Shown: in pieces, positions 815 through 50,035 of the stretch
How the letters are laid out: each line of letters starts with the position of its first letter
Position numbering within the stretch: the first letter of the stretch is position 1
From: Candidatus Poribacteria bacterium
GTDB taxonomy: Bacteria; Poribacteria; WGA-4E; PCPOR2b
DNA length: 64,000 nt
Direction: 5' to 3'
NCBI GenBank assembly: GCA_965208425.1
Contig: OZ242335.1
Span: 188,544 to 252,543 of the forward strand
Notes under the pieces: model-generated
Told to the model about the DNA's origin: nothing
Databases searched by the model: none
The model's input: only the letters and a program-made list of their open reading frames with translations
Made by a program: the position numbers and the translations under genes

Positions 815-978
815 TAGTGGATCTTAGAATTAATGAGACACTCCAAACCGGGGGGTTAGGAAAACGAAACTACCGTTTTGGTAGGCGCTGTTTCTAACTG
901 CGCCGATTCGGTGCGGTTGAAAACCGCACCTACCGGGGACAAAAGTGTCTATTTATTTTTAGAATTCACCATAATTGA
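815..978. mobile_element. MITE family 1 copy, ~165 bp, with imperfect TIRs (tggtagatcttagaattaatgagacact ... agtgtctatttatttttagaattcacca)
   Basis: Sequence recurs at least 11 times in the window in both orientations. Internal inverted segment ggtaggcgctgtttctaactgcgcc. No ORF. Intergenic placement. Confidence 0.7.
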
Positions 979-1113
979 AATATATCGCCGGTATTCTATC
1001 ACAGCGGGGTTTACGAAGTCAAACCAAAACCCAGTAGAGGTCAGAAAGCTGTTGACAGGAGACATCGGGTTATTTATAATCCTAAAAATCAGAATTCGAA
1101 GGAGGTATCAACA

Positions 1114-1953
1114 ATGCAGATAACCGCTCCTACCTTGCCAACCATCTCACTTGGTCCGCACCAAGTAAGTCGACTCATCATCGGTGACAACCCAATCTAC
1201 GGCTATTCGCATTTCAATCAACTTCTTGCTAAGCACCAACAGGAGGCACACGCACCGAGTTCGGTGATAGAGACATTGAGACGCGCTGAAGCCGTCGGGA
1301 TCAACACTTGGCAGAACACAATCACGGAGCGTTCACTCTCCGATCTGCTTCGTTATCGGGAAGAAGGTGGCACGATTCAGTGGCTATGCCTCAGTACCTC
1401 ACAATGGTACGATGAACCGCACCATATCGCAGAAGTTGCACGTCATAATCCGATCGGTATGGCACCCCACGGCGGTGGCATCGGCGATCGCTGTCTTCGT
1501 GAAAACAAGCTTGATCTGCTTAAAGACATCCTCAAGCGGATTCGGGATACCGGCGTTTTGGTCGGTTTGTCTGCCCACGACCCCCAACTTATCGGCATCG
1601 CAGAGGACGAGGATTGGGATATCGATTACTATATGGCTGCTCTTTACAATCTGCGTGGGGGAAGAGAGGAGTTTGAGGAGAAGTTTGGTTACTCGCCGTT
1701 GGGAGAGGTCTATCTACGTGAGCACCGTCCCAAGATGTGTGAGCAGATCTTGCAAACAGACAAACCGTGTATTGTTTTCAAGGTACTCGCTGCAGGTCGA
1801 GCGGTTGGATCGAAGGAACAGATTCGCGAAGAATTTGCGTTCGCATTGAAAAACATCAAACCCAACGATGCCCTGCTCATCGGCATGTATCAGAAGTTCG
1901 GGGACCAGATCGGTGAGAACGCTGCGATGATTGCTGAGCTCTGTCAAGAGTGA
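1114..1953 (+). CDS. hypothetical protein (279 aa)
   Basis: Long ORF with a strong SD (gaaggaggt) 7-8 nt upstream of the ATG. I do not recognise a family. Confidence 0.65.
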   Translation: MQITAPTLPTISLGPHQVSRLIIGDNPIYGYSHFNQLLAKHQQEAHAPSSVIETLRRAEAVGINTWQNTITERSLSDLLRYREEGGTIQWLCLSTSQWYDEPHHIAEVARHNPIGMAPHGGGIGDRCLRENKLDLLKDILKRIRDTGVLVGLSAHDPQLIGIAEDEDWDIDYYMAALYNLRGGREEFEEKFGYSPLGEVYLREHRPKMCEQILQTDKPCIVFKVLAAGRAVGSKEQIREEFAFALKNIKPNDALLIGMYQKFGDQIGENAAMIAELCQE

Positions 1954-2145
1954 TGCGCTGCCAATGAACACAAGTTGCCACCGAAACAAAGCTTCAGCGG
2001 AGCGATAGGGGTGCAGGGAATAACGATTTCATTTGATCTGAGTGTTCATGATTTTAATGAACCAATGAACTCGTGAAAAAATAAGTGTTTCTCACGTCTC
2101 ACGCTCTTAGCATTTTGCACTTTCTTTTGATATGTATCTCCTTCT

Positions 2146-2913
2146 TTAACGTGCCATCCAACCCCCATCGACAGGCAGAATATGTCCATGGACATACGAA
2201 GCAGCCTCAGATGCGAGAAAGACCGCCGCGCCTGCGATATCATCAGGCGTGCCAAACTTACCCGCTGGGATTCGATCCATAAATTCCGCCACTCGCACCG
2301 GATCATTCAGAATCGCACTTGTCATGTCGGTTTTGATATATCCCGGTGCGAGTGCATTCACATTAATCCCTTTTGACGCCCATTCATTGGCAAGTGCTTT
2401 CGTTAACTGTGCTATACCACCTTTGCTTGCGGCATATGCTGCGGTTCGGATACCACCGGAAAAACTCAACAGCGATGCAATATTAATAATCTTCCCACTG
2501 CCACGCTCGACCATGCCTCGTCCAACCTGTTGGGAGAGCAGCCACACCGACTTCAGGTTGACCCGTATCACATCATCCCACCGATCTTCAGGAAAATCGA
2601 CGACAGCATCACGATGCGTTGTACCGGCATTGTTGACCAAAATATCAATCTGTCCATAAGACGCGTTCACCGCTGCAACCAAATCCGGAATGTTCTCTGT
2701 TTCGTTCATATCACAAGGAAAAATCTCCGCTTGAACGCCAAGAGCTTGTATCTCCTCCCGAGCCTCAATGAGTGTCGATTCGGATCTTGCAACAAGTGCG
2801 AGGTCCGCCCCGGCCCTCGCGAAACCAACCGCGATGCCTTTACCAATCCCTCGGCTTGCCCCGGTAACCAGCGCCACCTGTCCCTCTAGTGAAAAAAGAT
2901 GTGAAATTGTCAT
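2146..2913 (-). CDS. short-chain dehydrogenase/reductase (KduD / 3-oxoacyl-ACP reductase-like)
   Basis: TGASRGIG cofactor motif, NNAG, and the catalytic S...YAASK tetrad. 255 aa. AGGAGG-type SD upstream. Confidence 0.9.
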   Translation of the reverse strand: MTISHLFSLEGQVALVTGASRGIGKGIAVGFARAGADLALVARSESTLIEAREEIQALGVQAEIFPCDMNETENIPDLVAAVNASYGQIDILVNNAGTTHRDAVVDFPEDRWDDVIRVNLKSVWLLSQQVGRGMVERGSGKIINIASLLSFSGGIRTAAYAASKGGIAQLTKALANEWASKGINVNALAPGYIKTDMTSAILNDPVRVAEFMDRIPAGKFGTPDDIAGAAVFLASEAASYVHGHILPVDGGWMAR

Positions 2914-2954
2914 ACTCTTTCCCTCCTAATCGTAAATTTCCAGACTTGACCATA

Positions 2955-3148
2955 ACTATAGTAAATGCTAAAAATAAATAAACACTTTCGCTCCCCGGTA
3001 GGTGCGGTCCGATAAATCGTGACCAGGGTTTCCAACGGCACCGCATAGGCGCAGTTAGAAACAGTGCCTACCAAACCGGAGAACGGTAGTTTCGTTTTCC
3101 TAACCGCACCGGTTTGGCGTGTCCCATTAATTCTAAGGTCCACTATAC
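2955..3148. mobile_element. MITE family 1 copy, full length, inverse orientation
   Basis: ctaaaaataaataaacact ... ggtttggcgtgtcccattaattctaaggtccactata; same element as 815-978. Confidence 0.7.
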
Positions 3149-3248
3149 TTAACGCTTGACACGGTAAAACAGGCATCGGTATAATAACATAAGTTCGCAT
3201 TTTCCACCATCGCCCGTCTGCAAATACAACTTCACAGAGGAAAATATC

Positions 3249-4649
3249 GTGAAAAACCGTTGCTTCTTTAGCCTCGTTGTGGGCTTTACGCTGTTTTTTC
3301 TCCTTTTCGCCTGCAGCAAGGCGCAACTCCATCCCGCTGATCCGACCCACAGCGGTGCCACGTCTGGTGTTCAATTGTTAGCATCAATTGAAAATGCCTT
3401 CGTTAGTATTGCTGAAAGGAGTAATCCCGCCGTTGTTGGTGTCACTGCGTCGAGCGTAGAAAGGCGAACAATTCCCCTTAGAAGGTCCGATCGACAGGAG
3501 GGGACGGGGTTTATTTTTCGCAAAGATGGTTATATTTTAACCAATAATCATGTTGTAAGCGGTGCGAAGCAGATTACGGTTCGCCTATTTGACGGTAGAG
3601 AATTCAAAGATACCCAATTGATTGGGGTTGACCCAAACACGGATGTCGCGGTGTTAAAAATTGATGTGCAGGAAGAACTTCCTGTGCTTCTATTTGGTGA
3701 TTCGGATAGAGTTAAAGTTGGACAGTTTGCAATCGCGATCGGCAACCCATTCCAACTTAATTATACGATGACCACCGGGATTGTCAGTGGAAAGGGACGC
3801 TCACTGTTGCCATCGTTTACGATGCACTATCAAGATTTTATCCAGACTGATGCGTGGATCAACCGGGGAAACAGCGGGGGTCCCTTGCTCAATATACGCG
3901 GAGAAGTCATCGGTATCAACTCTGCGATTCGACGCGCAGATGATGCCCCAACGGCAGACGCAGTCAAAGCGGGTGCCGGTTTCGCAATTCCCATCAATCT
4001 CGTGAAAAAGGTCAGCGACCAGCTCATTGCGAACGGACAGGTGATACGTGGGTGGTTAGGGATTTCTATGGTCCCACATACCGACGGTATTCGGGTAACC
4101 CAATTTCATAGTCCGTCCCCTGCCAGACAGGGTGGTATGGAGGTGGGGGATATCATTGTCGAATACAATATGCAAGAAACGCGAGATGTTCGTAAATTCA
4201 GATTCCTTATTGCCGAGTCAGTGGTTGGTAAGGAAGCATCGTTCACAGTCATTCGCCGCGGCGAGCGCAAAAAACTCTCTATAACGATTGGCAGGATGCC
4301 GTGGCGTTTCACAGGGTTGGCAAGGGAGTCAGATTCGGCATCGTGGACGAAACTGGGCATAGCTGTCCGTGATCTAGCTGCCCACGACTTTGAGCGTTAC
4401 CCCTACTTGAGTCTTGAGGCTGAGGGAGTCATTGTTAAGGATGTACGTCTTGGTGCTCCTGCCCCCAGTGCAAGGGTCGCACTCGGAACATTAATTGTGG
4501 GAATCAACGACCAGCGAATCAAAAACATGGCAGATTACGAAAGAGTGCTGCAAAATGCTCTCAGTAAATCGGAAATCTCTTTTGAAATTAAGAATGCCTA
4601 TACCGACGAAGGAACAGAAACGGTTACGGTTAAATTTAATCAAGAGTGA
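3249..4649 (+). CDS. htrA: HtrA/DegP-family periplasmic serine endoprotease with two PDZ domains; lipoprotein-type signal (LLFAC)
   Basis: Catalytic triad contexts TNNHVV, DVAVLKI and GNSGGPL. GTG start with GAGGA SD. 466 aa. Confidence 0.85.
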   Translation: MKNRCFFSLVVGFTLFFLLFACSKAQLHPADPTHSGATSGVQLLASIENAFVSIAERSNPAVVGVTASSVERRTIPLRRSDRQEGTGFIFRKDGYILTNNHVVSGAKQITVRLFDGREFKDTQLIGVDPNTDVAVLKIDVQEELPVLLFGDSDRVKVGQFAIAIGNPFQLNYTMTTGIVSGKGRSLLPSFTMHYQDFIQTDAWINRGNSGGPLLNIRGEVIGINSAIRRADDAPTADAVKAGAGFAIPINLVKKVSDQLIANGQVIRGWLGISMVPHTDGIRVTQFHSPSPARQGGMEVGDIIVEYNMQETRDVRKFRFLIAESVVGKEASFTVIRRGERKKLSITIGRMPWRFTGLARESDSASWTKLGIAVRDLAAHDFERYPYLSLEAEGVIVKDVRLGAPAPSARVALGTLIVGINDQRIKNMADYERVLQNALSKSEISFEIKNAYTDEGTETVTVKFNQE

Positions 4650-4759
4650 AGCCTCATACCAATTTTTCTTCCCGCGTCGAGCACATGTTTTGGGAACGAT
4701 TGTTAAACAACTCTTGAATGCATCAGTTATCTGACTTTTGGCTTGTATGAGAGGTAGCG

Positions 4760-6757
4760 ATGAAAGAACATCTAGCAAATTTACGGGAAGTCCTTGGTCC
4801 CGATGGATTGATTGCGGAACAGCTAACCGGCTATGAGTTTCGACCACAACAACTTGAGATGGCGGAGGCAGTCGCTAGCGCGCTGTCGTCCGATGAACAC
4901 CTTGTGGTTGAAGCTGGTACAGGTGTCGGTAAAAGTTTCGCCTACCTCCTGCCCGCGATTGATCTCGCACTTAGTACCTACGAGCCGGTAGTAATTTCCA
5001 CCAATACTATCAACCTGCAAGAACAGTTGATTTCCAAAGATATACCGTTTCTGCAGCAGGTCCTCCCACAACCTTTCACCGCTGCACTCGCCAAAGGGCG
5101 TGGAAACTATCTGTCGCGGCGTCGTCTAGACAGCTTGAGGACTTATGAGCGTCCACTATTTGATACGATGGCAGAGGCAGAAGAACTTGATCGTATTGTG
5201 GAGTGGGTTAACGTTACTGAGGACGGAAGTAGGGCGGATCTTGAACCGCAGCCGATGTTTGAAATTTGGAATAAGGTAGCCTCGGATACGGATAATTGCC
5301 TGCGGCAACGATGCCCGACCTACGACACATGCTTCTATTTCAAAGCGAGAGCTCAGGTGAATGAAGCCGACCTGATTATTGTGAATCACCACCTGCTTTT
5401 TGCGGATTGGGCGCTCCGTAAAACCAATCCTTACGCTGCCATACTGCCAGAATATAGATACCTAATCATTGATGAAGCGCATCACCTTGAAGCGACTGCG
5501 ACGGAACACACAAGCGTTGAGTTTAGCAATACGCGGGTCAAGAGGTTTTTGGATTCTCTGTGTAATCCACAAGGGAAGGCAGGGCTATTTATCCGATTCG
5601 AATCAACGGGTTCTATTCGGCTTGTTGAGGACGCGCGAGAGGAGGCGAACCAACAGTTTGATTCAATTATGAGTTGGTTGGATCGGCAGGGGGTGAGAGA
5701 TCGAGGACATGGGGTCACACAAACCGTAGATCAAGCCGATTTCGTGCACAATGTGTTAGATGATCCTTTGGGTGAACTCCAGAGCCGGTTAACGTTGCTG
5801 AGAGATGCAGCAACAACCGAAGACGATCAGCAAGAAATTGAAGCCCATCTGCGTCGCTGCCGTGAACTGCGCAACGACTTAGATGTGATGGTTAGTCACA
5901 CGCTGCCGGATTACGTCTACTGGATTAACACCTCGACACGAGGACGATTTGATCGAGTTGTATTACATGCGACGCCAATCGATGTGAGTGAAGAATTGAA
6001 CACCCACCTGTTTGAAAAACTGGACAGTATCATTATGACCAGTGCGACCCTAGCGACCAACCAGAATTTCGACTACTTTCGGGGACGGGTTGGTTTGTCT
6101 CATTGCCGCGAATTACTTGTCGGATCACCCTTCAACTATCAAGAGCAGGTTGAAATTCATATCCCCTCGCGGATGCCGGATCCACGAGATCGTGCGTTCA
6201 CGCAGGCTGCTACCGCGCAGATCCTGAATTATCTCAAACTAACGCATGGCAAAGCCTTCGTCCTGTTTACAAGCTACCGGATGATGGATGAGGTTTACGA
6301 GGAAGTTCTGCCTTACCTTGAGCAGCTTGGAATTGACGTGCTCAAACAGGGAGAGGGACTTTCGCGCAGCGCGATGTTAACGGAGTTTAGAGAGAATATC
6401 AATTCTGTTCTGTTTGGAACTTCCAGTTTTTGGGAGGGAGTTGATGTGCGGGGTGAATCGCTCAGTAGTGTGATTATTACTAAACTACCCTTTGAAGTCC
6501 CGACACATCCAGTGATAGAGGCGCGGGTCAAGCAGATTGAAAAGCGGGGCGGAAACCCGTTTATGGAGTTTAGCTTGCCAGAAGCGATTATTCGATTCAG
6601 GCAAGGATTTGGACGTTTAATTCGCACACAGACGGACACCGGTATTTTCGTTGCCCTTGATGCACGCATCAAAACTAAGTTTTACGGCAGGCAGTTTTTG
6701 AACTCGCTGCCATCTTGCAAAATTGTAGAGAGCGATTCATTGTACGATAGAATATGA
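4760..6757 (+). CDS. dinG: ATP-dependent DNA helicase, DinG/Rad3 (XPD) family
   Basis: Walker A AGTGVGKS, DEAHH box, and a Cys cluster CLRQRCPTYDTCFYF typical of the Fe-S domain. 665 aa. Confidence 0.85.
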   Translation: MKEHLANLREVLGPDGLIAEQLTGYEFRPQQLEMAEAVASALSSDEHLVVEAGTGVGKSFAYLLPAIDLALSTYEPVVISTNTINLQEQLISKDIPFLQQVLPQPFTAALAKGRGNYLSRRRLDSLRTYERPLFDTMAEAEELDRIVEWVNVTEDGSRADLEPQPMFEIWNKVASDTDNCLRQRCPTYDTCFYFKARAQVNEADLIIVNHHLLFADWALRKTNPYAAILPEYRYLIIDEAHHLEATATEHTSVEFSNTRVKRFLDSLCNPQGKAGLFIRFESTGSIRLVEDAREEANQQFDSIMSWLDRQGVRDRGHGVTQTVDQADFVHNVLDDPLGELQSRLTLLRDAATTEDDQQEIEAHLRRCRELRNDLDVMVSHTLPDYVYWINTSTRGRFDRVVLHATPIDVSEELNTHLFEKLDSIIMTSATLATNQNFDYFRGRVGLSHCRELLVGSPFNYQEQVEIHIPSRMPDPRDRAFTQAATAQILNYLKLTHGKAFVLFTSYRMMDEVYEEVLPYLEQLGIDVLKQGEGLSRSAMLTEFRENINSVLFGTSSFWEGVDVRGESLSSVIITKLPFEVPTHPVIEARVKQIEKRGGNPFMEFSLPEAIIRFRQGFGRLIRTQTDTGIFVALDARIKTKFYGRQFLNSLPSCKIVESDSLYDRI

Positions 6758-6799
6758 CAAGTGATGAACGACTCCATTAGGTTTCACTCATCACTTGTC
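6756..6799. terminator. hairpin between convergent genes (gacaagtgatga ... tcatcacttgtc, 12-bp stem)
   Basis: Perfect 12-bp inverted repeat lying between the stop of dinG (6757) and the stop of the minus-strand lipoprotein gene (6814). The loop is long (~20 nt), so terminator function is uncertain. Confidence 0.3.
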
Positions 6800-6813
6800 G
6801 CTTATCTTCACCG

Positions 6814-7593: not shown

Positions 7594-7862
7594 GGTGGAT
7601 TTTACCTCCTTGTTCGTCCATCATCTGTGATGGGCTTTTTAGTAATTAAACATAACTATTTCGGTATTCACGCTCTTGCCTCGGCACCCAGAAACCTATC
7701 AAATTATGTCGAGGCACTTATATTATGTAACCCGACGGTGCCAAAAACTTCTCAATCTGCTAGTATAGCATACCTCTCTTTTTAATTCAAACACAAAATT
7801 GACTCGATTTCTCAGAAAACTATTGAGACATGTAGGCCAACCTTTTCAGCTGTTTCATAAAC

Positions 7863-9660: not shown

Positions 9661-9774
9661 GGTGGTAATTTGGTTGGAATCGTCAAGAAGAATTTAGTAT
9701 ACTTGCAGGGACATTTAGCTCTCCTGTAGGAGGAATCTCCCGGTTGCGACTTTTCAAACAAAATGGTTAAAAAG

Positions 9775-9860
9775 CTGTAAACTATGGTAGATTTTAGAAT
9801 TAATGGAACACTATGAACGAGCCCTGATAGATCGGGGGTCGCAGAGTTGCGGCACACGGA
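9775..9860. repeat. MITE family 1, partial and divergent copy
   Basis: tggtagattttagaattaatggaacact... left end only. Confidence 0.4.
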
Positions 9861-9959
9861 GTGTGCCTATACTATTGATGTCTGCTTATTTATCTAATTC
9901 ATCATAAATAGCCCTAAGTATATTTGTGTGTCTTAAAATTTCAAAGGAGAAATACAACT

Positions 9960-10349
9960 GTGCATTTTAGAATTTGGCTTGTTTGTGTTGCGTGTTTTAT
10001 GGCGACTTTTGTTACCTTTAGCTGTGGAATCGTCGGTGATGGCGATCCAGCTATCTACCTCGTTAACGATGGCAGAAGAGAGGGTTATTTAAGTTTTTAC
10101 CTCCAGTCTGACAAATCCCTTGAACATGACACCGTCGTTTTAATTCGTATCGAAGCGGAGCTAGGCGGGCATTGGTTTACTAGTGAACAGTTCATACTCT
10201 TTTTCGCAGGAAGAGTTCAATCTTGGGTATTTGAGGTACACAACACTATCAATATAACAATAGATTCTCCAACACCTGAGACGCGTTTCTGGAAAAATAA
10301 AGGTAACAATACTGCCCGTAGAAGAACGGCTGAATATCGAGCTTCCTAA
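9960..10349 (+). CDS. hypothetical small lipoprotein
   Basis: GTG at 9960 preceded by AGGAG. The signal peptide ends in the lipobox FSCG. The track ORF 9924..10349 starts upstream with no RBS. Confidence 0.45.
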   Translation: MHFRIWLVCVACFMATFVTFSCGIVGDGDPAIYLVNDGRREGYLSFYLQSDKSLEHDTVVLIRIEAELGGHWFTSEQFILFFAGRVQSWVFEVHNTINITIDSPTPETRFWKNKGNNTARRRTAEYRAS

Positions 10350-10492
10350 GAAAGCTTGGTACAAGGGTAATTTCTTGAACAAGGGTGGTTCTGATACCTA
10401 TGAGGAAATTCCTGTCCGGCACAAATTCCAACCCTACAAGGTTGGTGAACCGTCAGTGCTTTTCAGTGAGCCCCAAAAATGACCTTCATTCA

Positions 10493-10603
10493 ATTATAGT
10501 AGATTTTAGAATTAATGAGACACTCCAAATCGGCGCAGTTGGAAACAGCGCCTACCAGGTGGGGCGAAAGCGTCTGTTTATTTTTAGAATTCACTATAGA
10601 TAT
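10493..10603. mobile_element. MITE family 1, short (~110 bp) form
   Basis: tttagaattaatgagacactccaaatcgg ... cgtctgtttatttttagaattcac. Confidence 0.6.
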
Positions 10604-10611
10604 GGCGAGTA

Positions 10612-10836
10612 TTACAGCCACCTGTCATCAAATCCTATTTTTGTAACATGACCCGCCTTAATGTCAGCGCGGACTTTTTCAGCAAGTCGAGCGAGTTTAT
10701 CTTGTGATGCGGCAAAAGCCTCATCCCATTGCTGTTCATCTTCCAGTTCTTCGAGAATCACAGCCGCAATAGCATCCTGCTTTTCAGGCGGCAGTTTATA
10801 AACTGCGATGAGTGCTTTTTCAAGAAGTTGGGTCAT
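10612..10836 (-). CDS. small hypothetical protein (74 aa), resembles 'putative addiction-module component' small acidic proteins
   Basis: ORF with a GGAAAGG RBS. Sequence LPPEKQDAIAAVILEELEDEQQWDE. No partner toxin gene is visible; a MITE lies downstream. Confidence 0.4.
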   Translation of the reverse strand: MTQLLEKALIAVYKLPPEKQDAIAAVILEELEDEQQWDEAFAASQDKLARLAEKVRADIKAGHVTKIGFDDRWL

Positions 10837-13310: not shown

Positions 13311-13468
13311 TAAAAGTATTGGCTCATGTAAAAAGAGAGTGCAAAGCACGAAGTGAAGGCCCCCTTTGTACCCCCCTTAATCCCCCCGCAAGCAGGGGGA
13401 GAGTAACCCCTGATAAATCGGGATACAAGTGCTTGTGGCTTTGGTTGCACTAATTCTTAACATGAGCG
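13311..13468. mobile_element. MITE family 2 copy, full ~158 bp (gctcatgtaaaaagagagtgcaaagcacgaag ... gcactaattcttaacatgagcg TIRs)
   Basis: Near-identical copy at 18003-18148; short forms at 23372-23462 and 50505-50592; fragment at 34738-34782. Contains ccccccgcaagcaggggga and cctgataaatcggg palindromes. Confidence 0.7.
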
Positions 13469-13567
13469 AAAGTATTATAATCCTTAGCGTAGCAAAATAG
13501 GAAAAATTTATCGTTCGTTGAGTTCTATTCGCACTACCGGGATAGAGGATTGACATCACGATGAATT

Positions 13568-15896: not shown

Positions 15897-16055
15897 TGGT
15901 AGATCTTAGAATTAATGAGACACTCTCAATGCACAGCTAACCCCCTAAATCCCGCCCCCGATTTTATCGGGATTTCACTGACGCTCAACTTGTCAGGGGG
16001 ACTTTGGAAACTGCGCGAAAGCCGGAATTATTGGTACTGTCTACTTATTTATTTA
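15897..16055. mobile_element. MITE family 1 variant (1b) carrying the cccctaaatccc...cagggggactttgga module
   Basis: The tggtagatcttagaattaatgagacactctcaatgcaca... direct counterpart lies at 16250-16375. Confidence 0.5.
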
Positions 16056-16087
16056 ACCTAAGTTGCTAGTTGCGTGATGATACGACA

Positions 16088-16165
16088 TACATGTCGCCCC
16101 GCTGGGGCTTTAAGGTTGGTTTTATCCTATTTTCTATACACATGTCGCCCCGCTGGGGCTATGAG
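16088..16165. repeat. hairpin-repeat doublet: 2 x acatgtcgccccgctggggct separated by ~30 bp, flanked by inverted aacctaagttgctagttgcg arms
   Basis: Seen directly in the sequence. A second doublet of the same repeat lies at 27929-28002. Confidence 0.6.
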
Positions 16166-16249
16166 TTGGGCAAGATGCCCGACCTACAGGTATCGGGGTT
16201 TGCCTTTTACTGCGTTGCATATAACTAGCAACTTGCGTTATTTATTTAT

Positions 16250-16375
16250 GGTAGATTTTAGAATTACTTAGACACTCTCGATGCACAACCAACCCCCTAA
16301 ATCCCCCTTATCAGGGGGACTTTGGACATATTGGCAAATGTCTACTTATTTCTCTAATTCACCATAATTCACCAT
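16250..16375. mobile_element. MITE family 1 variant (1b) copy
   Basis: tggtagattttagaattacttagacactctcgatgcacaaccaaccccctaaatccccc... Confidence 0.5.
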
Positions 16376-17877: not shown

Positions 17878-18002
17878 CTCGTTTTATCCAAGTAGATGCT
17901 ATGACTATAGCACATCTCTGCTTGAAAGGCAATCGTGGGTTTTATTTTTACTTGACACTTGTCATCATTTCCCTTAATCTCAAAGAACTTATTTTCTTGG
18001 CT

Positions 18003-18148
18003 CATGTAAAAAGAGAGTGCAAAGCACGAAGTGAAGGCCCCCTTTGTACCCCCCTTAATCCCCCCGCAAGCAGGGGGAGAGTAACCCCTGATAAATCGGG
18101 ATACAAGTGCTTGTGGCTTTGGTTGCACTAATTCTTAACATGAGCGAT
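18003..18148. mobile_element. MITE family 2 copy
   Basis: Near-identical to 13311-13468. Confidence 0.7.
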
Positions 18149-18344: not shown

Positions 18345-19319
18345 ATGCAACAGAGGGACGATCCTGCACATTTTATTTTAATTGGGGTTGCAGTTTTGGG
18401 GCTGACACCGCTGATGGTAAACGTTGACGCACAGGCACAGATTGCCTTCTCGTCTAACCGAGACGGGAACTGGGAAATCTACGTGATGGATGCTGATGGA
18501 AGGAATCAGCGAAGACTCACTATCACTCCCTTTTCTCATGACTTTTCACCCTCATGGTCTCCGGACGGCAAGCTCATTGCCTTTTCTTCCGAATCTGAAC
18601 GAGATGGGAACATAGAAATCTACGCGATGGGTGCGGATGGGAAGAATCATCGAAACCTCACCAATCATCCCCAGACTGACGGGAATCCCTCATGGTCACC
18701 TGACGGTGAACACATTGCCTTTGCGTCTAATAGGATTGGGAATTGGGAAATCTATGTGATGCGTGCCGATGGGAAGAATCAGCGAAGAATTACCAGAGAT
18801 GACCATGATGACTTATTCCCTTCATGGTCACCCAATGGTGAGCACATTGCCTTTGTGTCTGATAGGGATTGGAACTGGGATATCTATGTGATGGACGTCG
18901 ATTTTGGGATGGACGCCGATAGGAAGGACCAACGAAGACTCACTGAAGATGTTCGTGGGGACTTGTACCCTTCATGGTCACCCGATGGGGAACATATTGC
19001 CTTTGCGTCTATTAGGGATGGGAACTCTGAAATCTACGTGATGGACACCAATGGGCGGGATCAGCGAAACCTTACCAATCATCCCCAGGCTGACAACTAT
19101 CCCTCATGGTCACCTGACGGTGAACACATTGCCTTTGCGTCTAATAGGACTGGGAATTGGGAAATCTATGTGATGGGTGCCGATGGCAAGCGTCAGCGAA
19201 ACCTCACCAATAATCTCCATAGAGAGATTGATCCTGCATGGTCTGCCCCTGCTTTTGCAGTTACTCTCGCAGGTAAGCAGTTCACGATATGGGGGTGGCT
19301 CAAACAAGTTGTCCAATAA
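18345..19319 (+). CDS. TolB-like periplasmic beta-propeller protein (six PD40/WD40-like repeats)
   Basis: Repeating units of the form ...SPDGEHIAFAS.RDGNWEIYVMDADGKNQRRLT.... GGAGG SD. Signal peptide present. Confidence 0.8.
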   Translation: MQQRDDPAHFILIGVAVLGLTPLMVNVDAQAQIAFSSNRDGNWEIYVMDADGRNQRRLTITPFSHDFSPSWSPDGKLIAFSSESERDGNIEIYAMGADGKNHRNLTNHPQTDGNPSWSPDGEHIAFASNRIGNWEIYVMRADGKNQRRITRDDHDDLFPSWSPNGEHIAFVSDRDWNWDIYVMDVDFGMDADRKDQRRLTEDVRGDLYPSWSPDGEHIAFASIRDGNSEIYVMDTNGRDQRNLTNHPQADNYPSWSPDGEHIAFASNRTGNWEIYVMGADGKRQRNLTNNLHREIDPAWSAPAFAVTLAGKQFTIWGWLKQVVQ

Positions 19320-26400: not shown

Positions 26401-26664
26401 GCCTGCGTAGATAACATTTGGATCTGCATCTGCCACCGCGATAGCGCCTACCGCAGCACTATTGAAGAACTCGTCTGTGATGTTTTCCCAGTATGTTCCT
26501 GCGTCGTCAGTCTTCCAGACACCGCCAGCACACGCGCCGAAGTAAAAGACTGCCGGCTCTGTGGGATGTCCCGCTACCGCAACAACACGCCCACCCCGTG
26601 GTGGACCGATACAACGCCATTTGAGTGATTGAAATAAATTTGAATCTGATTGAGAATTGCTCAT
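23458..26664 (-). CDS. BNR/Asp-box (Sortilin/VPS10-like) repeat glycosyl-hydrolase-like protein
   Basis: Multiple S-x-D-G-G-x-T-W Asp-box repeats (STDGGKAW, SKDGGTTW, STDGGDTW, SDDGGETW, STDGGHTF...). I re-called the start at ATG 26664 (MSNSQSDSNLF...). The track ORF reads on into MITE1. Confidence 0.75.
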   Translation of the reverse strand: MSNSQSDSNLFQSLKWRCIGPPRGGRVVAVAGHPTEPAVFYFGACAGGVWKTDDAGTYWENITDEFFNSAAVGAIAVADADPNVIYAGTGETTIRLDVSYGDGVYKSTDGGKAWENVGLKETRHIGKIRIHPQNPDLVYVAALGHAFGPNEERGVFRSKDGGTTWENILFRSEKAGAVDLAMDPHNPRILYATIWETYRNFWELSSGGPDSSLYKSTDGGDTWEELTNKPGLPKGLIGKIGVASSPAQSDRVWAIVEAEKGGLHRSDDGGETWELLTDNRDLWHRPFYYCHIFADPQDPDTVYVLNLKMWKSTDGGHTFTEITTPHGDNHDLWIDSNNPRRMIEGNDGGACVSFNGGDSWTTIYNQLTSQFYRIDTDNRFPYRVYATQQDNSSICAPSASEYGGIHWVDCYPVGTGESGDIVVHPENPDIAYIGAIGSSPGGSGVLQRYDHHTRQIRLVNVWPEEYIGLGPKDLKYRFSWTFPIAFSPHNPGVLYVAGNIIFRSTDEGSSWEPISPDLTRNDVTKLGPSGGPITKDASGAEHYGTVYAFVESSHESGVFWAGSDDGLIHISRDEGQSWENITPPDLLEWSLISNIETSPHDPATAYVAVTRYKLDDYQPYLYKTDDYGQTWHIISGSFPEGEITRVIREDPVRSGLLYVGTETGIYVSLDDGANWYRLQNNLPVVPVYDLKIKDGDLVAGTHGRSFWILDDVTPLRHMSAEAAQASPHLFEPRATYRRWLQWGAGMFRSETGKNYLMGLGAAATFYLEKSPEGERTRRFLDAGEGPPQGVIVYYLLEDTSADSVELTFLDADGAEIKTFTTKPEDAEDDEADSDNKDDRYIPAEPGLNRFVWDMSYPDSEAVTEPPSGKQEAPPDKPNNGPLASPGTYQTQLKVGAQAQTQTFEICKDPRVTASQADFDAQFELWSQIRDKLSETHEAINRLRRIQRQANEWKKRADAGEDTNAEAICEAAEALQEKLKAIEGELIQTGADTIGDRLRLPTMLIGKLAGLTSVVAVADFAPPKQAYELFEELSSQIDAQLDQLKSVIEEDVAAFNNLISEANVPAVVT

Positions 26665-26734
26665 GCTCTGTTTTCCTTTATTGTTGGGTATGAGATTTTG
26701 TGGCGAACGCAGATCTGCGTTCCCTACTGTAGTG

Positions 26735-26822
26735 GATTTTAGAATTAATGAGACACTGCCAATCGGTGAGGTTGGAAACCTCACCTACCGGGGAGCGCAA
26801 GTGTCTATTTATTTTGAGCCTC
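26735..26822. mobile_element. MITE family 1, short form
   Basis: ttttagaattaatgagacactgccaatcggtgaggttggaaacctcacctaccggggagcgcaagtgtctatttatttt. Confidence 0.6.
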
Positions 26823-27066
26823 CACCATAATCCGTTTTTTCGTCGAAGTCTAGGGCGACAAATCGGTAACCGATTGTTTTCATCCGCTCCACAATTGTTT
26901 CTCGTATCTGAATGGCTCTGTCGAAATCAGATTCTGCTACCTGTATCCGCACGATTTTTCTGTGAGGATAGATTGATGCTTCTGGGATGCCAAGTTCGGA
27001 TAAACACTGCTGGGCGAGCGCCACCATTTCATCTTCGTTGAGTTTTTGGGTTGTATTTGATTGCAT
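26809..27066 (-). pseudogene. LarE-like PP-loop ATPase C-terminal fragment (85-aa ORF; probable gene remnant)
   Basis: ...KIVRIQVAESDFDRAIQIRETIVERMKTIGYRFVALDFDE resembles the C-terminal tail of LarE-type enzymes (..ARIEV..DEF.....R..V...K.LGFKYVSLDLEGY). The N-terminal PP-loop domain is absent. The 3' end of the ORF lies inside MITE1. Confidence 0.35.
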
Positions 27067-27187: not shown

Positions 27188-27350
27188 ATGGTAGGTCTTG
27201 GAATTAATGAGACACTCCAAATTGGTAGGTGCTGTTTCTAACTGCGCCGTTTGAACCCACCCAACGGTGTGTATGCGATGTGGTTTTTAACCGCACCAAC
27301 CGGGGAGCGCAAGTGTCCATTTATTTTTAGAATCCACCACAGTAAATCCT
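27188..27350. mobile_element. MITE family 1 copy, full length
   Basis: tggtaggtcttggaattaatgagacactccaaattggtaggtgctgtttctaactgcgcc ... gtgtccatttatttttagaatccaccac. Confidence 0.7.
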
Positions 27351-27834: not shown

Positions 27835-28005
27835 TCAGGTTGGTAGGCGCAATTAGAAACAGTGCCTACCAAACGGTAAAACGGTTATAAATCCCCCTGA
27901 CAAGGGGGATTTAGGGGGTTGGTTGTACATGTCGCCCCTCTGGGGCTTTAGGGTATTTGTTTATCCGTATGCTATAAACATGTCGCCCCGCTGGGGCTAA
28001 ATGAA
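27835..28005. repeat. composite repeat: MITE1 internal fragment + ccccctgacaagggggatttagggggttgg + second hairpin-repeat doublet (acatgtcgcccc[g/t]ctggggct x2)
   Basis: Seen directly in the sequence. Confidence 0.5.
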
Positions 28006-32156: not shown

Positions 32157-32164
32157 AGCAAGCT

Positions 32165-32338
32165 ATGGTCAATCCTAAAAATAAATAGACACTTTCGCCC
32201 CTGGTAGGTGCGGTTTTCAACCGCACTGCATCGGCGAGTTAGAAACAGCGCCTACCAAACGGTAGAGCGGTAGTTTCGTTTTCCTAACCGCCCCGGTTTG
32301 GAGTGTCTCATTAATTCTATGATCCACTATAAATCCGA
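32165..32338. mobile_element. MITE family 1 copy, full length, inverse orientation
   Basis: cctaaaaataaatagacactttcgcccctggtaggtgcgg ... ccggtttggagtgtctcattaattctatgatccactat. Confidence 0.7.
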
Positions 32339-39041: not shown

Positions 39042-39317
39042 GGTTGTTGCTCCTTTCAAATTGAGAATGTGAAATTTTAGGCTGGAAACCGTCCGAAATC
39101 TGTAAGGACGCTTCCAAAACCAAGAGGAGATTGACAAATGAAAACACTGGAAACAACCCCAATGCTTTAGCGTTGGGTCAGATGGCGTAATTTTGATTGA
39201 TAGTGACATCAAAATATGGCATAATTCCTTTGTCCTTGTGGGAAAGTTCTACGCCACCGCCCGGTGGTGTCTCCCACACCTTTTAGAACAAGGTGTAAGG
39301 CCAAACAGGACACACCC

Positions 39318-40418
39318 ATGTTAAAAACTCACAAAATAGCCTTAGATACAAACAACGTCCAAGCGACACAATTCGCTCAACATTGCGGCTATGCTCGTGT
39401 TGCTTACAATCACGTTCTTGCTGATTTTAAGGCTGGTTTAGCCAATGACGAGTGGTATAGCCATATAGAGTTAAACAAACGTTTTAATTCTGTCAAGCGT
39501 GAGCAATATGAGTGGTGTGACGAGTTAAACCAACGTGCTGCTCACAATGCGATTTACTTCAACTTTCAGAATGCTGTTAAGCGTTGGCAGTCAGGTCAGG
39601 GTCGTTTTCCAAAGTTCAAGAAGCGTTCCAAAGGTCAAAGTTTCCAAGCGGATGCAGGTCGAGGCACAACTATTATCGAAGGACAGCGTATAAAACTACC
39701 CAAGATGGGTTGGGTTCGTATGTTCCAAACACTTCGACACCTCGGCACTATCGTCAAAGTTGTCATCTCAAAGACAGCTAACCGTTGGTTCGCTTCTATT
39801 ACTGTAGATACTTTCGATAACGATACTATTGTTGACAATCGCCATTTACCTGTTGTTGGTGTTGACGTAGGTATCAAGCACTTAGCTGTCACGTCCGAAG
39901 GTGTATATCACGAAAACCCCAAAGCCTTAAAGCGTTACCAGCGGAAGCTAAAACGGCTGCAACGTCAGTTAAGCCGTCGAAAGAAAGGGAGTCGGAATTG
40001 GCGTAAAACGAAAGCCAAGATTGCCAAGCTGCACTACCGAATCACCTGTATCCGACAAGATGCCCAACATAAGGCAACAACGGCTATCGTCAACGGTGCG
40101 AGTCGTATTGGGATGGAGTCGCTAAATGTTGCAGGTATGTTAAAAAACCACAGACTTGCAAAGGCATTATCGGACGCTTCGCTATCCAGTTTTCTCACGA
40201 TGCTTGCCTACAAATCAGAACGGATAGGTGTTAAAATTGTAGAGGCAGACACCTTCTACCCGTCGAGTCAGACGTGCTCGGCTTGTGGGGCAAAAGACAA
40301 AGCCCTGTCACTATCGGATAGGACGTACCATTGCAGTGATTGTGGTCATACACAAGACAGGGACCTTAACGCTGCAATTAACCTACGAAACGTCGCCATG
40401 GGACACACGGAGACTTAA
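39318..40418 (+). CDS. tnpB: TnpB (OrfB) RNA-guided endonuclease / IS605-family accessory protein
   Basis: RuvC-I VGVDVGIK, RuvC-II GMESLNV, zinc finger CSACG...CSDCGH, and RuvC-III DRDLNAAINL are all intact. Start at ATG 39318 (MLKTHKIALD) with an AGGA RBS. Confidence 0.85.
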   Translation: MLKTHKIALDTNNVQATQFAQHCGYARVAYNHVLADFKAGLANDEWYSHIELNKRFNSVKREQYEWCDELNQRAAHNAIYFNFQNAVKRWQSGQGRFPKFKKRSKGQSFQADAGRGTTIIEGQRIKLPKMGWVRMFQTLRHLGTIVKVVISKTANRWFASITVDTFDNDTIVDNRHLPVVGVDVGIKHLAVTSEGVYHENPKALKRYQRKLKRLQRQLSRRKKGSRNWRKTKAKIAKLHYRITCIRQDAQHKATTAIVNGASRIGMESLNVAGMLKNHRLAKALSDASLSSFLTMLAYKSERIGVKIVEADTFYPSSQTCSACGAKDKALSLSDRTYHCSDCGHTQDRDLNAAINLRNVAMGHTET

Positions 40419-43880: not shown

Positions 43881-43900
43881 TCGAGGATTCTCGATTTCGT

Positions 43901-43920
43901 AAGCGTTGGAACGCTTTTCA
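43901..43920 (+). terminator. candidate intrinsic terminator (aagcgt-tgga-acgctt followed by TTT)
   Basis: Short hairpin 20 nt after the stop at 43880. Weak. Confidence 0.3.
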
Positions 43921-43985
43921 GTCCCGATCTATCGGAGACGCAACGGAATCGGAGCCAGACCTGAATAATATCTCCCAATCTACCG

Positions 43986-45752: not shown

Positions 45753-45811
45753 ACTATCCTCCTTGGTTCATTGGTTCAAGAGTTCATGAATGAGCCAATC
45801 AGTTAATATGG

Positions 45812-45905
45812 TAGATCTTAGAATTAATGGGACACTGCCAATCGGCGAGGTTGGAAACCTCGCCTACCGGGGATCGAAAGTATCTATTTATTTTTAGAAT
45901 CTACC
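45812..45905. mobile_element. MITE family 1, short form
   Basis: tggtagatcttagaattaatgggacactgccaatcggcgaggttggaaacctcgcctaccggggatcgaaagtatctatttatttttagaatctacca. Confidence 0.6.
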
Positions 45906-45921
45906 ATAATTTTCGGATTCG

Positions 45922-46926: not shown

Positions 46927-47049
46927 TGATTGATACTCCTCTCGATAATTTTAGGCACAGGTTATAAGACCATAAGTTGATATTTTGTGCATTTTAGCAC
47001 ATAGATCAGTTGCGCGCAAACGAAAAGGGGTACTGCAACGACAATCTCC

Positions 47050-47847
47050 TCAATTCTTCGATTTAGCGCACCGGAAGCCGATGTGGTAATATGTACCTGA
47101 TAGGGCGTAAGCGCGTGCTGCGCACCGCAGATCAAATATTGAATCAAACCAGCTTCCACCACGAACAACAAACGGTCCCCTTGTAGGATGCCTTCGTTGA
47201 TTCATACGATCTCTGCGATAATACGGCAGATATCTATCTGCACACCACTCCGCTGCGTTACCTCCCATGTTGTAGAGGGTGTAGCTATTCGGTGAAAAGT
47301 GGTCAACCGGTTTCAGGTATCTCTGCATATTTTTCAACCCACCGCTGCGGATATCCCTCGAATCGTAGTTTGCTGCGTCTGGATCAATTTGATTTCCCCA
47401 TGGATAGCGCTGCCTCGACTGCCCGCCCCGCGCTGCCTTCTCCCATTCCGCTTCCGTTGGCAACCTTTTCTCACGCCATTCGCAATACGCTTGCGCTGCT
47501 TCATGTGTGACATACGTCATGGGATAGCGGTCCATGCCAATGGGAATGTCGTTTCCAACCCAATGCTTGAGATAGTCCCGCACATTGACGGCTGACTTTT
47601 GCCATTGACGGTTCGCCAAAACAAATGCTCGATAGTCGGCATTGGTCGTTTCGTACTTGTCGATATAGAACGCCTCCAGCGAGACTTGGTGCACAGGTAT
47701 TTCATTGGACCTACCTTTATCGCTCCCCATCTGAAACGATCCGGCGGGGATGAGCACCATCTCCGATGATGCGAACCCTTGAGGGTGCCCGATTGCACCA
47801 ACAAATAGTAGAACGTAAAGCATCAGGCTACATAGGTGGTTAGGCAT
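47050..47847 (-). CDS. formylglycine-generating enzyme (FGE/SUMF1) family protein, with signal peptide
   Basis: C-terminal signature ...RGGSWFDSIFDLRCAARAYALSGTYYHIGFRCAKS. 265 aa. Confidence 0.85.
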   Translation of the reverse strand: MPNHLCSLMLYVLLFVGAIGHPQGFASSEMVLIPAGSFQMGSDKGRSNEIPVHQVSLEAFYIDKYETTNADYRAFVLANRQWQKSAVNVRDYLKHWVGNDIPIGMDRYPMTYVTHEAAQAYCEWREKRLPTEAEWEKAARGGQSRQRYPWGNQIDPDAANYDSRDIRSGGLKNMQRYLKPVDHFSPNSYTLYNMGGNAAEWCADRYLPYYRRDRMNQRRHPTRGPFVVRGGSWFDSIFDLRCAARAYALSGTYYHIGFRCAKSKN

Positions 47848-47878
47848 GACTAGCTCTCCCTCGTAATTCTCTTAATAG

Positions 47879-48268
47879 CTATTCCACTACAACCGCATCC
47901 GCTTCGATTTCGACCAACATCTCCGGTTCAATCAAGCGGCTGATTTCGACCATACTGGTAGCGGGACGAATTGCTCCAAAGAACTCACCGTGTGCGAGTC
48001 CAATCTTCTCCCAATCGTTGATGTCTGTCACATAGATGCGTGTGCGGACGACATCTTTCAGACTGGCACCTGCGGATCTGAGTGCAGTTTCTATGTTGCT
48101 TATGGTCTGCAATGTCTGTTTATAGGCGTCCCCCGCACCGACGATTTCGCCGTTTTTACCTGTCGCTGTCGTTCCTGAAACGTGGATATATTGCCCAATC
48201 CGGACAGCCCGTGAATAGCCCACAATCAATTCCCATTTTGTTCCCGTCGAAATGTTTTGTCTTTTCAT
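47879..48268 (-). CDS. ridA: RidA/YjgF-family enamine/imine deaminase
   Basis: 129 aa; YjgF fold pattern (..[12 protein letters not shown]...MVEI..L). Confidence 0.75.
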
Positions 48269-48620
48269 TATCAGTAGTTTAGGTGTGGATTATACCCTCT
48301 GCCTGTGTTTTGTGTAGGAGCGATTTCCGAATCGCGACTCTAACTCTGCTGCAGTCTAACATACCGCCCGATTTTTATCAAGATTTGCACGATTCATTAG
48401 TAATCTGTGACGTGAGTTGGTAAGGCTATCATTTCAACATCATCCAAGAGTCGTGAGTAAAGCGTAGAGAGTTCCGCCTATCATGCTTTACGTTTCACTC
48501 TTTTGGAATTGACCCAACTCAAAGAATCTGATAAGCTGCTCCTAACAGGTTTTGCTGGCATGTCAAACCCACGTAATAAAATCTCACTATAACCTCCAAC
48601 GCACAGAAAAGGGGAGAACA

Positions 48621-49829
48621 ATGGACAAAGCACATAAGGTTACGATGTTAGGAACAGGGCTAATCGGTATGTTCTACACAATGACGCTCCACGGGCAGCG
48701 AAGCCGGGACCGCGTTCGTGTGGTGTACTCACGCACTGAGGAGCGGGCGAAAGATTTTGCAGCCGAGTGGGACATCCCTAAATCGACGACGGATCTCGCT
48801 GAAGCAATTAACGATCCGGAAACCGATGTGGTGGTCATCGGTCTTCCCAATGACTTGCACGAGGAAGCGGTTGCGATGGCTGCCGAAGCGGGCAAAGCGA
48901 TCCTATGTACGAAACCGTTGGGACGCAACGCAGCTGAAGCCAAAAGGATGCTTGATACCGTTGAAAAGGCAGGTGTCTTTCACGGTTATCTTGAGGATCT
49001 GGTCTACCCTCCGAAGACGCTCAAATCTATTGAATCTGCTAAAAACGGCGCGATTGGTCAGGTATTATGGGTTCGCTCTCGTGAAACTCACCCCGGACCC
49101 CACAGCGACTGGTTCTGGGATATTGAACAGGCAGGTGGCGGTGCCATCGTTGACATGGGCTGCCACTGTATCGAAATTATCCGTAACTTTATCGGCAAAG
49201 ATATTAAACCCATTGAGGTCATGTGTTGGGCGGACACCCTCGTCCATCCCGTTGAAGCGGAAGACCACGGGATTGCCCTGATCAAATTTGAGAACGGGGC
49301 AATGGGGCAGTTTGAGGTAGGATGGGCATTTCGCGGCGGCATGGATATACGCGATGAAGTATCGGGCACAGAAGGCACCATCTGGCTCAACCACTGGCTG
49401 AGAACGGGTATGGAGATGTTTACATCGGGCGGACAGGGCGGTTACGTTGCTGAAAAAGCTGAAACCGATACAGGCTGGCTTTTCCCTGTTGGTGATGAGG
49501 TCGGGGAACTCGGATATCGTGATATGTTTGTTGACATACTCAACGCTTTGGATAATGGCACGGAGCCGATGGAAACCTTTTATGATGGATACGTCGTCAA
49601 CGCCATTATCGATGCGTGTTATCGGTCAGCAAAATCGAAGCAGTGGGAGCCGGTAGAATTGGAGGACTGGCGTGGGGCGACTGGAGTAGAGAAGATTGGT
49701 GTTGCAGCGGTTGAAGTTGACGGGGGTTATACACTGGTTAAGGAAGAACGGATGCCCGATGGTCGCCTAAAACAGATTATCAGAGATAAGGAGAGCGGTG
49801 CTATCACTGAGAGGATTACGGAGAGTTGA
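48621..49829 (+). CDS. Gfo/Idh/MocA-family oxidoreductase
   Basis: Start re-called at ATG 48621 ([16 protein letters not shown]) with a GGGGAG SD. Rossmann N-terminus and a C-terminal alpha/beta domain. Confidence 0.8.
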
Positions 49830-49847
49830 AATCCGCTGTGGCCCCTG

Positions 49848-50035
49848 CATTATAGTGAATTCTAAAAGTGAATAGACACTTTCGCCCCTTACCTGGTAGG
49901 TGCGGTTTTCAACCGCACCGAATAGGCGCAGTTAGAAACAGCGCCTACCAAACGGTGGAACGGTAGTTTCGTTTTCCTAACTCCCCCGGTTTGGAGTGTT
50001 TCATTAATTCTAAGGTCCACTATAATAATGGTAGG
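49848..50035. mobile_element. MITE family 1 copy, full length, inverse orientation
   Basis: ctaaaagtgaatagacactttcgcccc...ggtttggagtgtttcattaattctaaggtccactata. Confidence 0.7.

Follow-up and report, generated by a model that had tools for sequence, protein, structure and literature searches.

An abundant family of TA-flanked miniature elements with REP-type cores in Candidatus Poribacteria

What is the hairpin-forming repeat that stands again and again between the genes of a 64,000-nt stretch of Candidatus Poribacteria DNA (contig OZ242335.1 of assembly GCA_965208425.1, positions 188,544 to 252,543; hereafter the window), and what moves it? An earlier note on this DNA had listed 12 positions of the repeat, here called family 1, and described it as a MITE (a miniature transposable element with inverted repeats). 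The explanation that we consider probable is a MITE of two layers: a shell of terminal inverted repeats (TIRs) moved by an IS630/Tc1-mariner-type enzyme, and a core of repetitive extragenic palindromic (REP) units that serve as substrate of a REP-associated tyrosine transposase (RAYT).

The window was searched with the terminal and internal strings of the earlier note, allowing up to 3 mismatches, and 100 dinucleotide-preserving shuffles served as the control. The terminal string gave 9 matches and the internal string 6, with a chance expectation of 0; no match of any kind was found in the 100 shuffles. A two-end scan and an nhmmer profile built solely from the copies of other genomes both recovered the same 12 places, and nothing else was significant. 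The listed positions, which proved correct to within 10 bp, represent one alignable family comprising ten complete copies of 98–187 bp, another copy of which one end is degenerate, and a fragment of the interior (Table 1). Short forms of 98–100 bp and long forms of 151–187 bp lie side by side, in agreement with the coexistence of short and full forms that had been described. Family-1 DNA accounts for 2.5% of the window's length (about 1.57 kb), which corresponds to about 170 copies per Mb.

The statistics on the elements cover the window and 100 sampled loci outside it (designated by L-numbers such as L011, L045 and L101), about 0.85 Mb of poribacterial DNA. They contain 288 ends and 114 paired elements of 76–279 bp. 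The A end reads T(A/G)GT(G/A)GATYTTAGAATTAATGAGACACT and the B end reads AGTGTCTATTTATTTTTAGAATTCACCA. Together they form imperfect, AT-rich TIRs of about 28 bp, whose A and B arms agree at 19 of 28 positions, and this asymmetry between the ends is conserved. The termini are sharp in all copies. At least three further subfamilies have the A end in common and differ by diverged B ends or by their interiors. A TA is found just outside the element on the left in 105 of the 114 pairs, on the right in 108 and on both sides in 101. The target is the palindrome WWY-TA-RWW, in which the three bases next to the TA are mirror-symmetric (WWY|RWW). Direct repeats of 3–5 bp flank none of the 114 elements, which rules out a duplication of the PIF/IS5 type. 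Alignment of the copies and a search for TIRs and target-site duplications, both proposed in the earlier note, thus yielded a single family with imperfect 28-bp TIRs and a 2-bp TA duplication. The elements are shorter than 500 bp, multi-copy and non-coding, their TIRs have defined termini, and the comparison of empty with filled sites reveals a target-site duplication, all of which are properties of a MITE. The strict TA, the 2-bp duplication and the symmetric flanking preference also agree with the target of the IS630/Tc1-mariner group, of which a strict TA, a 2-bp gain, a symmetric target and TIRs of this length are established hallmarks. A bacterial precedent is the pneumococcal repeat RUP with IS630-Spn1 (PMC2229807).

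Empty sites were found between species, within synteny and between strains. Between species, L011 reads TTTCCAAT-TA-[94-bp element]-TA-AGGTGAC and L097 reads TTTCCAAT-TA-GAGGGAC, a clean empty site with a single TA. Between strains, the Logan contig L101, which is 98.5–99.4% identical to the window, reads GGAATT-TG-ATTGAA at the place where the window reads GGAATT-TA-[copy 1]-TA-ATTGAA, so that copy 1 is missing exactly to the base. Further strain variants were sought by exact-protein look-up of four other window genes, and none was on record. L045 is syntenic with the window over 7.5–16.8 kb at 80–88% identity; it has two copies that are absent from the window and lacks window copies 3–6, and where copies 5 and 6 lie, the window has an 800-bp spacer filled with repeats and L045 has 84 bp. 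Over the syntenic pairs (85–90% identity), at least eight copies are lineage-specific versus one or two shared. Because sites are empty or filled between species, in synteny and between strains that are about 99% identical, family 1 is mobile now or was so until very recently, with exactly 2 bp gained per insertion. The earlier note had concluded recent or ongoing mobilisation from the density of the copies. Mobilisation itself is upheld by the polymorphism between species and between nearly identical strains, but density alone is no proof of bursts: pairs of the same size within the window are only 71–88% identical, and 97% is the maximum found. Family 1 is not a young burst.

The interior of the elements is built from two kinds of hairpin unit. 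The alpha unit is GGTGCGGTT-N3-AACCGCACC, with about 80 occurrences, and the beta unit is GGCGCAGTT-N3-AACAGCGCC, with about 50 occurrences and a conserved A.A mismatch. TACC comes after either unit, so that the other strand reads GTAG-G and then a palindrome with a 9-bp stem. In the forms GTAGGTGCGGTT-N3-AACCGCACC and GTAGGCGCTGTT-N3-AACTGCGCC, the units show the GTAG head, the imperfect GC-rich palindrome and the high copy number of REPs, and published REPs share the format of GTAG-G plus palindrome, for example GTAGGGTGGGCTTCAGCCCACC (Table 1 of PMC2817692). At least one well-formed unit is present in 93 of 112 paired elements (83%). The arrangements found in these elements include 54 single units in the orientation '<', 11 in the orientation '>', 15 inverted doublets '><' and 5 alternating triplets '<><', the last being the basic module of a bacterial interspersed mosaic element (BIME). 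The total is 215 REP units, of which 128 lie inside TIR-bounded shells; in the window 11 of 12 lie inside family-1 copies. Some units stand by themselves, some form tandem arrays and some are enclosed by a different end type. Compensatory changes maintain the stem, affecting 5 of its 9 pairs; 90% of cells are paired (cells being sequences counted, not independent events), and the covariation score was not attained in any of 500 shuffles.

The internal hairpins of family 1 are REP sequences, for which the phylum has a cognate RAYT, and the passing remark "REP-like" in the earlier note was literally right, though in a sense not foreseen there. The whole element, however, does not have the structure of a REPIN, a mobile unit bounded by REPs: its termini are AT-rich TIRs and not REPs, its short forms have one central REP, and a TA duplication is present. 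A palindrome of another kind, GTAGGGAACGCAGATCTGCGTTCCCTAC, stands beside family-1 ends at 26697–26728, about 50040–50060, and in L017 at about 1790; its head is GTAG and its tail CTAC, and it may represent an additional type of REP.

Comparison of copies also bears on the length forms. The orthologous copies L076 6391–6548 and L091 3279–3457, whose flanks are about 90% identical, differ by a 20-bp insert, TCCGATAAATCGTGACCAAGA, in a hairpin loop. The same 20-mer occurs in window copy 2 (3009–3028), where it takes up the corresponding loop position in a different hairpin. Mini-palindromes of the form CCCGA-N3-6-TCGGG are found 17 times in the window versus 3.6 expected, a 4–5x excess (e.g., 28637, 51210 and 60873), and they are often nested in loops; L091 3356–3376 is a further such site. 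That an orthologous MITE pair differs by TCCGATAAATCGTGACCAAGA alone suggests that the mini-palindromes are themselves mobile. Very small palindromes nested inside MITEs were reportedly described in Nostoc by Elhai et al. in 2008. Given the comparison of copies and the over-representation of these palindromes, the long forms are short forms that acquired additional REP units and nested mini-palindromes.

RAYT genes were sought by phmmer with E. coli RayT against the sampled loci. Two open reading frames (ORFs), L012 5212–5685 and L083 1179–1652, match Pfam Y1_Tnp at 2e-14 and 6e-15. Scores of 121–129 bits with the NCBIfam equivalog NF047646 REP_Tyr_transpos (cut-off 80) were obtained for the L012 protein and for two homologues of it, P0087 and P0030, and the IS200 model stays below its cut-off. 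The L012 RAYT has 203 homologue clusters, and all named ones are labelled Poribacteria; almost all are 157 aa long and most have one contig each, which is how a single-copy gene kept by vertical descent would look. In both L012 and L083, the RAYT gene is flanked by the same alpha and beta units as are found in the MITEs, which is, in these relatives, the arrangement of a rayt gene flanked by its own REPs in inverted orientation. In L012, GGTAGGTGCGGTTTCCAACCGCACC lies in front of the gene, and behind it are four 106-bp modules with inverted beta and direct alpha-like units. In L083, the beta array downstream of the gene terminates in a family-1 B-end TIR plus TA. The RAYT of L107 is 72% identical and adjoins a TnpB gene lying directly upstream. 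Downstream of it follow a family-1-like element, in which the half consisting of REP plus A end is repeated four times in tandem, and then further alpha arrays. L106 2650–3900 holds a 54% identical RAYT paralogue with arrays of a different REP (GTAGGCGGGGCATCTTGCCCCGC); therefore, at least two REP–RAYT pairs exist in the phylum. Tandem arrays of a REP plus adjacent sequence, with periods of 46, 106 and 89 bp, were seen in L055 (about 5800–5945), L012 (5690–6090) and L107 (3598–4300), and the final ~20 nt of rayt in L012 and a MITE end in L107 form part of the array unit.

In the two-layer explanation, the TIRs of about 28 bp would be the transposition ends, with which the element would enter the TA of WWY-TA-RWW, and the TA would be duplicated. 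The reaction would be cut-and-paste transposition, carried out in trans by a dimeric IS630/Tc1-mariner-type DDE enzyme. The sites described above carry the signature of transposition, from which we infer the type of enzyme and a gene for it. The core consists of one to five REP units, as single units, inverted doublets or alternating triplets, and these would be substrates of a separate single-copy RAYT. Length forms of 98–280 bp would come about when REP units are duplicated or inverted and when smaller palindromes nest in the hairpin loops. Both kinds of change are shown by the comparison of copies, and we suppose that they depend on RAYT. The MITE would then be the main vehicle that spreads REPs in these genomes. 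Its copies would be tolerated only between genes, where they would form long hairpins as RNA or as single-stranded DNA.

Several observations weigh against this explanation. The empty site of L101 is TG rather than TA. From sequence alone, a 2-bp duplication is indistinguishable from insertion beside a TA by an element that has one TA of its own. Copies of the same size have a median identity of 83%, and the best pair (97%) comes from different genomes; the copies are old and diverged, so that much of the family may be immobile now. There is no RAYT within the window, and its presence in the window's own genome is assumed from the relatives. An autonomous element with these TIRs was not found in about 0.85 Mb of sampled poribacterial DNA plus three metagenome matches; none of the 114 TIR pairs exceeds 279 bp. 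Solo ends are truncated copies or diverged subfamilies, and the ORFs beside them gave no parent. Among repeated segments of at least 400 bp, none is IS-like. An approximate DDE_3 consensus probe, a weak test, found nothing in about 0.85 Mb. Pfam, applied to 30 window ORFs, gave a TnpB gene as the sole transposon-type gene.

Other searches for a parent gave the same outcome. TIR pairs up to 4 kb apart with up to 10 mismatches in the sampled poribacterial loci revealed none, and a viral scan and two metagenome scans, one of them targeting a subfamily with ATG right after the TIR, were negative. The claim of the earlier note that a transposase acts in trans is consistent with the TA-duplicating MITE signature, but neither an element over 400 bp with these TIRs nor a DDE_3-like ORF turned up in about 0.85 Mb. 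The window TnpB, beside which no Y1 TnpA was seen, was rejected as mobiliser on mechanism, since elements of the IS200/IS605 type have no TIRs and make no TA duplication.

Could the elements instead be distant relatives of the Correia elements of Neisseria, moved by the same kind of transposase and not by a classical IS630 enzyme? In both, the terminal 10 bp, counted with the TA, have the same sequence (TATAGTGGAT) and are followed by an AT-rich stretch (Correia sequences from PMC5039591 and PMC9778887), the subterminal 12-mer AAACCGGT(G/A)CGG is common to both, and the local alignment beats all but 0.4–2.5% of shuffles (p 0.004–0.025). Both families have a TA duplication, TIRs of about 26–28 bp, short and long forms of about 100–190 bp, and no known parent. 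The Correia elements, also known as CREE or NEMIS, likewise have hundreds of copies, often beside promoters, and no known transposase. However, the similarity is short and was spotted post hoc, with modest p-values from the shuffles. The 26-bp Correia repeat, TATAGTGGATTAA(C/A)...(CCGGTACGG or TCAGGACAA), is absent at the family-1 ends, only the first 10 nt and the subterminal 12-mer being common. The interiors are unrelated, as Correia elements have an integration host factor (IHF) site and no REP, and the host phyla are unrelated as well. Strong outward promoters, the IHF site and the property of being an RNase III substrate distinguish Correia elements, and none of these is evident in family 1. 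We regard a Correia relationship as doubtful and take the resemblance as a lead only.

It is also conceivable that the copies are fossils of an ancient amplification that no longer move. Presence and absence would then reflect deletions and intergenic turnover, and the hairpins would be kept for the host, as proposed for REP/BIME, for uses such as mRNA stabilisation, termination or nucleoid binding. Such a history would suit the 5–30% divergence of the copies without near-identical pairs, the finding that non-orthologous copies across species are as alike as copies of one genome, the stems preserved through compensatory changes and the intergenic position of every copy. It does not suit the absence of copy 1 to the base, with 2 bp left, in a strain about 99% identical, the clean single-TA empty site of L097, or the excess of lineage-specific copies (at least eight) over shared ones (one or two) in syntenic pairs. 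Nor does it suit the lack of an excess of terminator-like and promoter-like sites or the weak orientation bias. Taken together, we hold this history to be quite unlikely.

We give similarly little credence to the idea that shell and core form one co-adapted, REPIN-like class that depends on RAYT without an IS-encoded DDE enzyme, or else that the mobiliser is common with the Correia elements. In the first case, a RAYT-dependent class would insert at TA, persist vertically throughout the phylum and multiply its modules beside the rayt gene; in the second, the Correia transposase, missing for so long, could be reached by way of Poribacteria. The stricter form, in which the whole element including its shell is a REPIN-like unit moved by RAYT (Y1/HUH) alone, has the central REP as recognition module, cleavage at the foot of the long TIR hairpin and the second TA as part of the element. 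It would explain why no DDE parent was found, and it fits the presence in the phylum of a RAYT with matching REPs, the MITE ends in RAYT-adjacent arrays, as if processed by RAYT, the REP in 83% of copies and the folding of the single-stranded element into one long hairpin. Known Y1 transposases cut about 10–20 nt from a hairpin and have an asymmetric, one-sided target. Because family-1 ends lie 35–45 nt from the REP at a mirror-symmetric target, because REP-less subfamilies with the same TIRs keep TA/TA (window copies 3 and 6 and a 76-bp L100 copy), and because some REPs are found by themselves or with other end types, we consider this form very improbable.

Among known systems, RUP of S. pneumoniae (PMC2229807) resembles the two-layer MITE in its size of about 100–190 bp, its lack of coding sequence, its TIRs with TA at both termini, its intergenic position and its fold into a long hairpin. 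It differs in that a parent IS with matching TIRs, IS630-Spn1, is known, whereas none was found for family 1, in which the TIRs are longer (28 bp), the A and B ends are consistently asymmetric and the interior consists of REP units. The REP/BIME/REPIN-RAYT systems of Proteobacteria (Nunvar 2010, PMC2817692; Bertels and Rainey, bioRxiv 10.1101/2021.07.10.451892) share with family 1 the GTAG-G head and GC-rich palindrome, the inverted doublets and alternating arrays, and a single-copy RAYT that is conserved in the lineage, flanked by REPs and accompanied by arrays gathered beside rayt. However, classical REPs and REPINs are free-standing, have the REP at the tip of the element and make no target duplication, whereas most REPs considered here lie in a TIR-bounded, TA-duplicating shell, and the host belongs to Poribacteria and not to Proteobacteria. 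Nezha and other cyanobacterial MITEs likewise fill a highly repetitive intergenic space and leave empty and filled sites between related species (PMC3184786), but Nezha has its TIRs in common with ISNpu3, and the sequences are unrelated. What is new in family 1 is the occurrence of REPs inside a TA-duplicating TIR shell, throughout a phylum and at a density exceeding the top value of a large census. As a rule, MITEs and REP/RAYT systems are regarded as distinct kinds of bacterial repeat. That most REPs travel in a MITE, and that RAYT arrays take in MITE ends, points to an interaction of two non-autonomous systems.

All copies are intergenic, in a sample with a crude coding fraction of 81%; the earlier note had said almost always. 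In the window, three copies lie in divergent 5' regions, three or four between convergent genes and the others between tandem genes. Orientation relative to transcription is weakly biased (39:22). Promoter-like sites are not enriched in the elements (30 vs 23.2 ± 5.0 expected), nor are terminator-like sites (18 vs 19.4 ± 5.0 expected). A general role as terminator or promoter was therefore rejected for lack of enrichment, and the perfect sigma-70 sites stand beside MITEs rather than within them. Two such 12/12 promoters (TTGACA-17/18-TATAAT) lie on the plus strand at 1052–1080 and 3156–3185, the first 81 bp to the right of copy 1 and the second 10 bp to the right of copy 2, so that these insertions are located just upstream of strong promoters. 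The suggestion that family 1 shapes gene 3' ends and supplies terminators does not hold, since 5'-5' divergent regions contain copies as often as 3' regions do. Copies were also said to abut stop codons, which is true of acnA; at the BNR gene the copy lies upstream of the start codon. The elements fold as long hairpins with z-scores of −2.1 to −5.5, and family 1 puts such hairpins into many 5' and 3' untranslated regions. Effects on mRNA are plausible, and a regulatory role of copies is possible.

The exact 22-mer of the A end occurs in at least 100 eight-kb tiles in species-representative genomes, and among the matches listed all are metagenome-assembled genomes of Candidatus Poribacteria, from 18 assemblies. 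A cyanobacterial origin of the window, which its WD40 repeats and GC content might suggest, was rejected on the ground that the genome matches are poribacterial. The 22-mer has three matches in JGI metagenomes and none in a viral collection. An Rfam search with family 1 gave nothing at gathering thresholds. From this distribution, family 1 appears to be a very abundant MITE specific to Candidatus Poribacteria, which are uncultivated sponge symbionts. Its density in neighbouring tiles of other genomes is roughly 75 per Mb. A census of 183,000 genomes reported a top value of 123 per Mb for all conserved MITE families (cMITEs) of a genome summed (PMC11602168), which the single family of the window exceeds at about 170 per Mb. 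Such density will break short-read assemblies, as exemplified by the L101 contig, which ends inside copy 2; the copies are also usable as strain-level markers. In the literature searched, no paper links Poribacteria with MITEs or IS630.

Table 1. Family-1 copies and two further features of the window (positions count from the first base of the window)
Feature	Position	Strand	Length	Flanks (left/right)	Structure and context
Copy 1	815-971	+	157 bp	TA/TA	A end to B end; degenerate REP, inverted beta REP (880-904) and alpha REP (906-934); 25 bp upstream of peptidase M48 start codon
Copy 2	2959-3145	-	187 bp	TA/TA	Divergent promoter region of short-chain dehydrogenase/reductase (SDR) gene (start 2913) and HtrA-like gene; 45 bp upstream of SDR start codon; alpha hairpin holds nested 20-bp insertion, about 3009-3028
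Copy 3	9785-9904	+	120 bp	TA/TA	Family-1 TIRs, different interior consisting of CCCTGATAGATCGGGG and GCACACGGAGTGTGC hairpins
Copy 4	10497-10596	+	100 bp	TA/TA	Short form; one beta REP
Copy 5	15897-~16060	+		TA at left	Subfamily 2; perfect A end; B end degenerate or truncated, abutting another MITE-like element
Copy 6	16249-16364	+	116 bp	TA/TA	Subfamily 2; interior CCCCCTTATCAGGGGG hairpin; 35 bp downstream of sulfatase stop codon
Copy 7	26730-26827	+	98 bp	TG/TA	Short form; one REP (GGTGAGGTT/AACCTCACC); 66 bp upstream of BNR/sortilin gene start codon (ATG at 26664)
Copy 8	27189-27339	+	151 bp	TA/CA	
Isolated REP-type unit and linker (GGTAGGCGCAATTAGAAACAGTGCCTACC...)	27840-27885	no strand			TIRs absent
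Copy 10	32166-32329	-	164 bp	TA/TA	Convergent intergenic region; TA and element start at 32164, 8 bp past acnA stop codon (32156)
Copy 11	45809-45906	+	98 bp	TA/TA	Short form; one REP (GGCGAGGTT/AACCTCGCC); between convergent genes
Copy 12	49853-50022	-	170 bp	TA/TA	Inverted REP doublet; 24 bp past stop codon of GFO/IDH/MocA gene
Putative lipoprotein gene	GTG 9960 to stop 10349		129 aa		Lipobox FSCG
TnpB gene	39264-40418	+			OrfB_IS605, Cas12f1-like TNB; NCBIfam guided_TnpB 267 bits

Copies 3 and 4 enclose the putative lipoprotein gene. The region 9667–10625, which includes about 860 bp made up of copy 3, this gene and copy 4, has in the syntenic L045 a counterpart of 94 bp that does not align. 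A composite transposon consisting of the three parts is unsupported: L045 lacks the 860 bp, but the junctions align uncleanly. The region could be a MITE-flanked gene gain.

Two other MITE-like families were noticed. The first has two copies of about 151 bp, at 13319–13470 and 17997–18148, which are 100% identical and have the TIRs (G/C)GCTCATGT...ACATGAGC(G). Their 8-bp direct repeats differ (AAAGTATT and ATTTTCTT), and the 13319 copy is absent at the orthologous L045 site. Because identical copies carry distinct 8-bp duplications, a very recent transposition by a different, 8-bp-duplicating enzyme is suggested. The second, with the TIR TAACCTAAGTTGCTAGTTG, is found at about 16053–16241 and also in L091 (3140–3270) and L083 (about 975). 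It contains two ACATGTCGCCCCGCTGGGGCT hairpins, and the same hairpin is found at 27930 and 27980. The window copy is squeezed in between copies 5 and 6 of family 1, the former of which it appears to truncate.

The window further contains two adjacent DUF1670 genes on the minus strand (57410–59124), one with a helix-turn-helix domain, and internally tandem-repeated genes at 55247–57217, 18345–19319, 51972–54941 and 61900–63700. The repeats of these genes are of a WD40-type with a 126-bp period, of 132–141 bp, and, near the right end of the window, of 324 and 126 bp.

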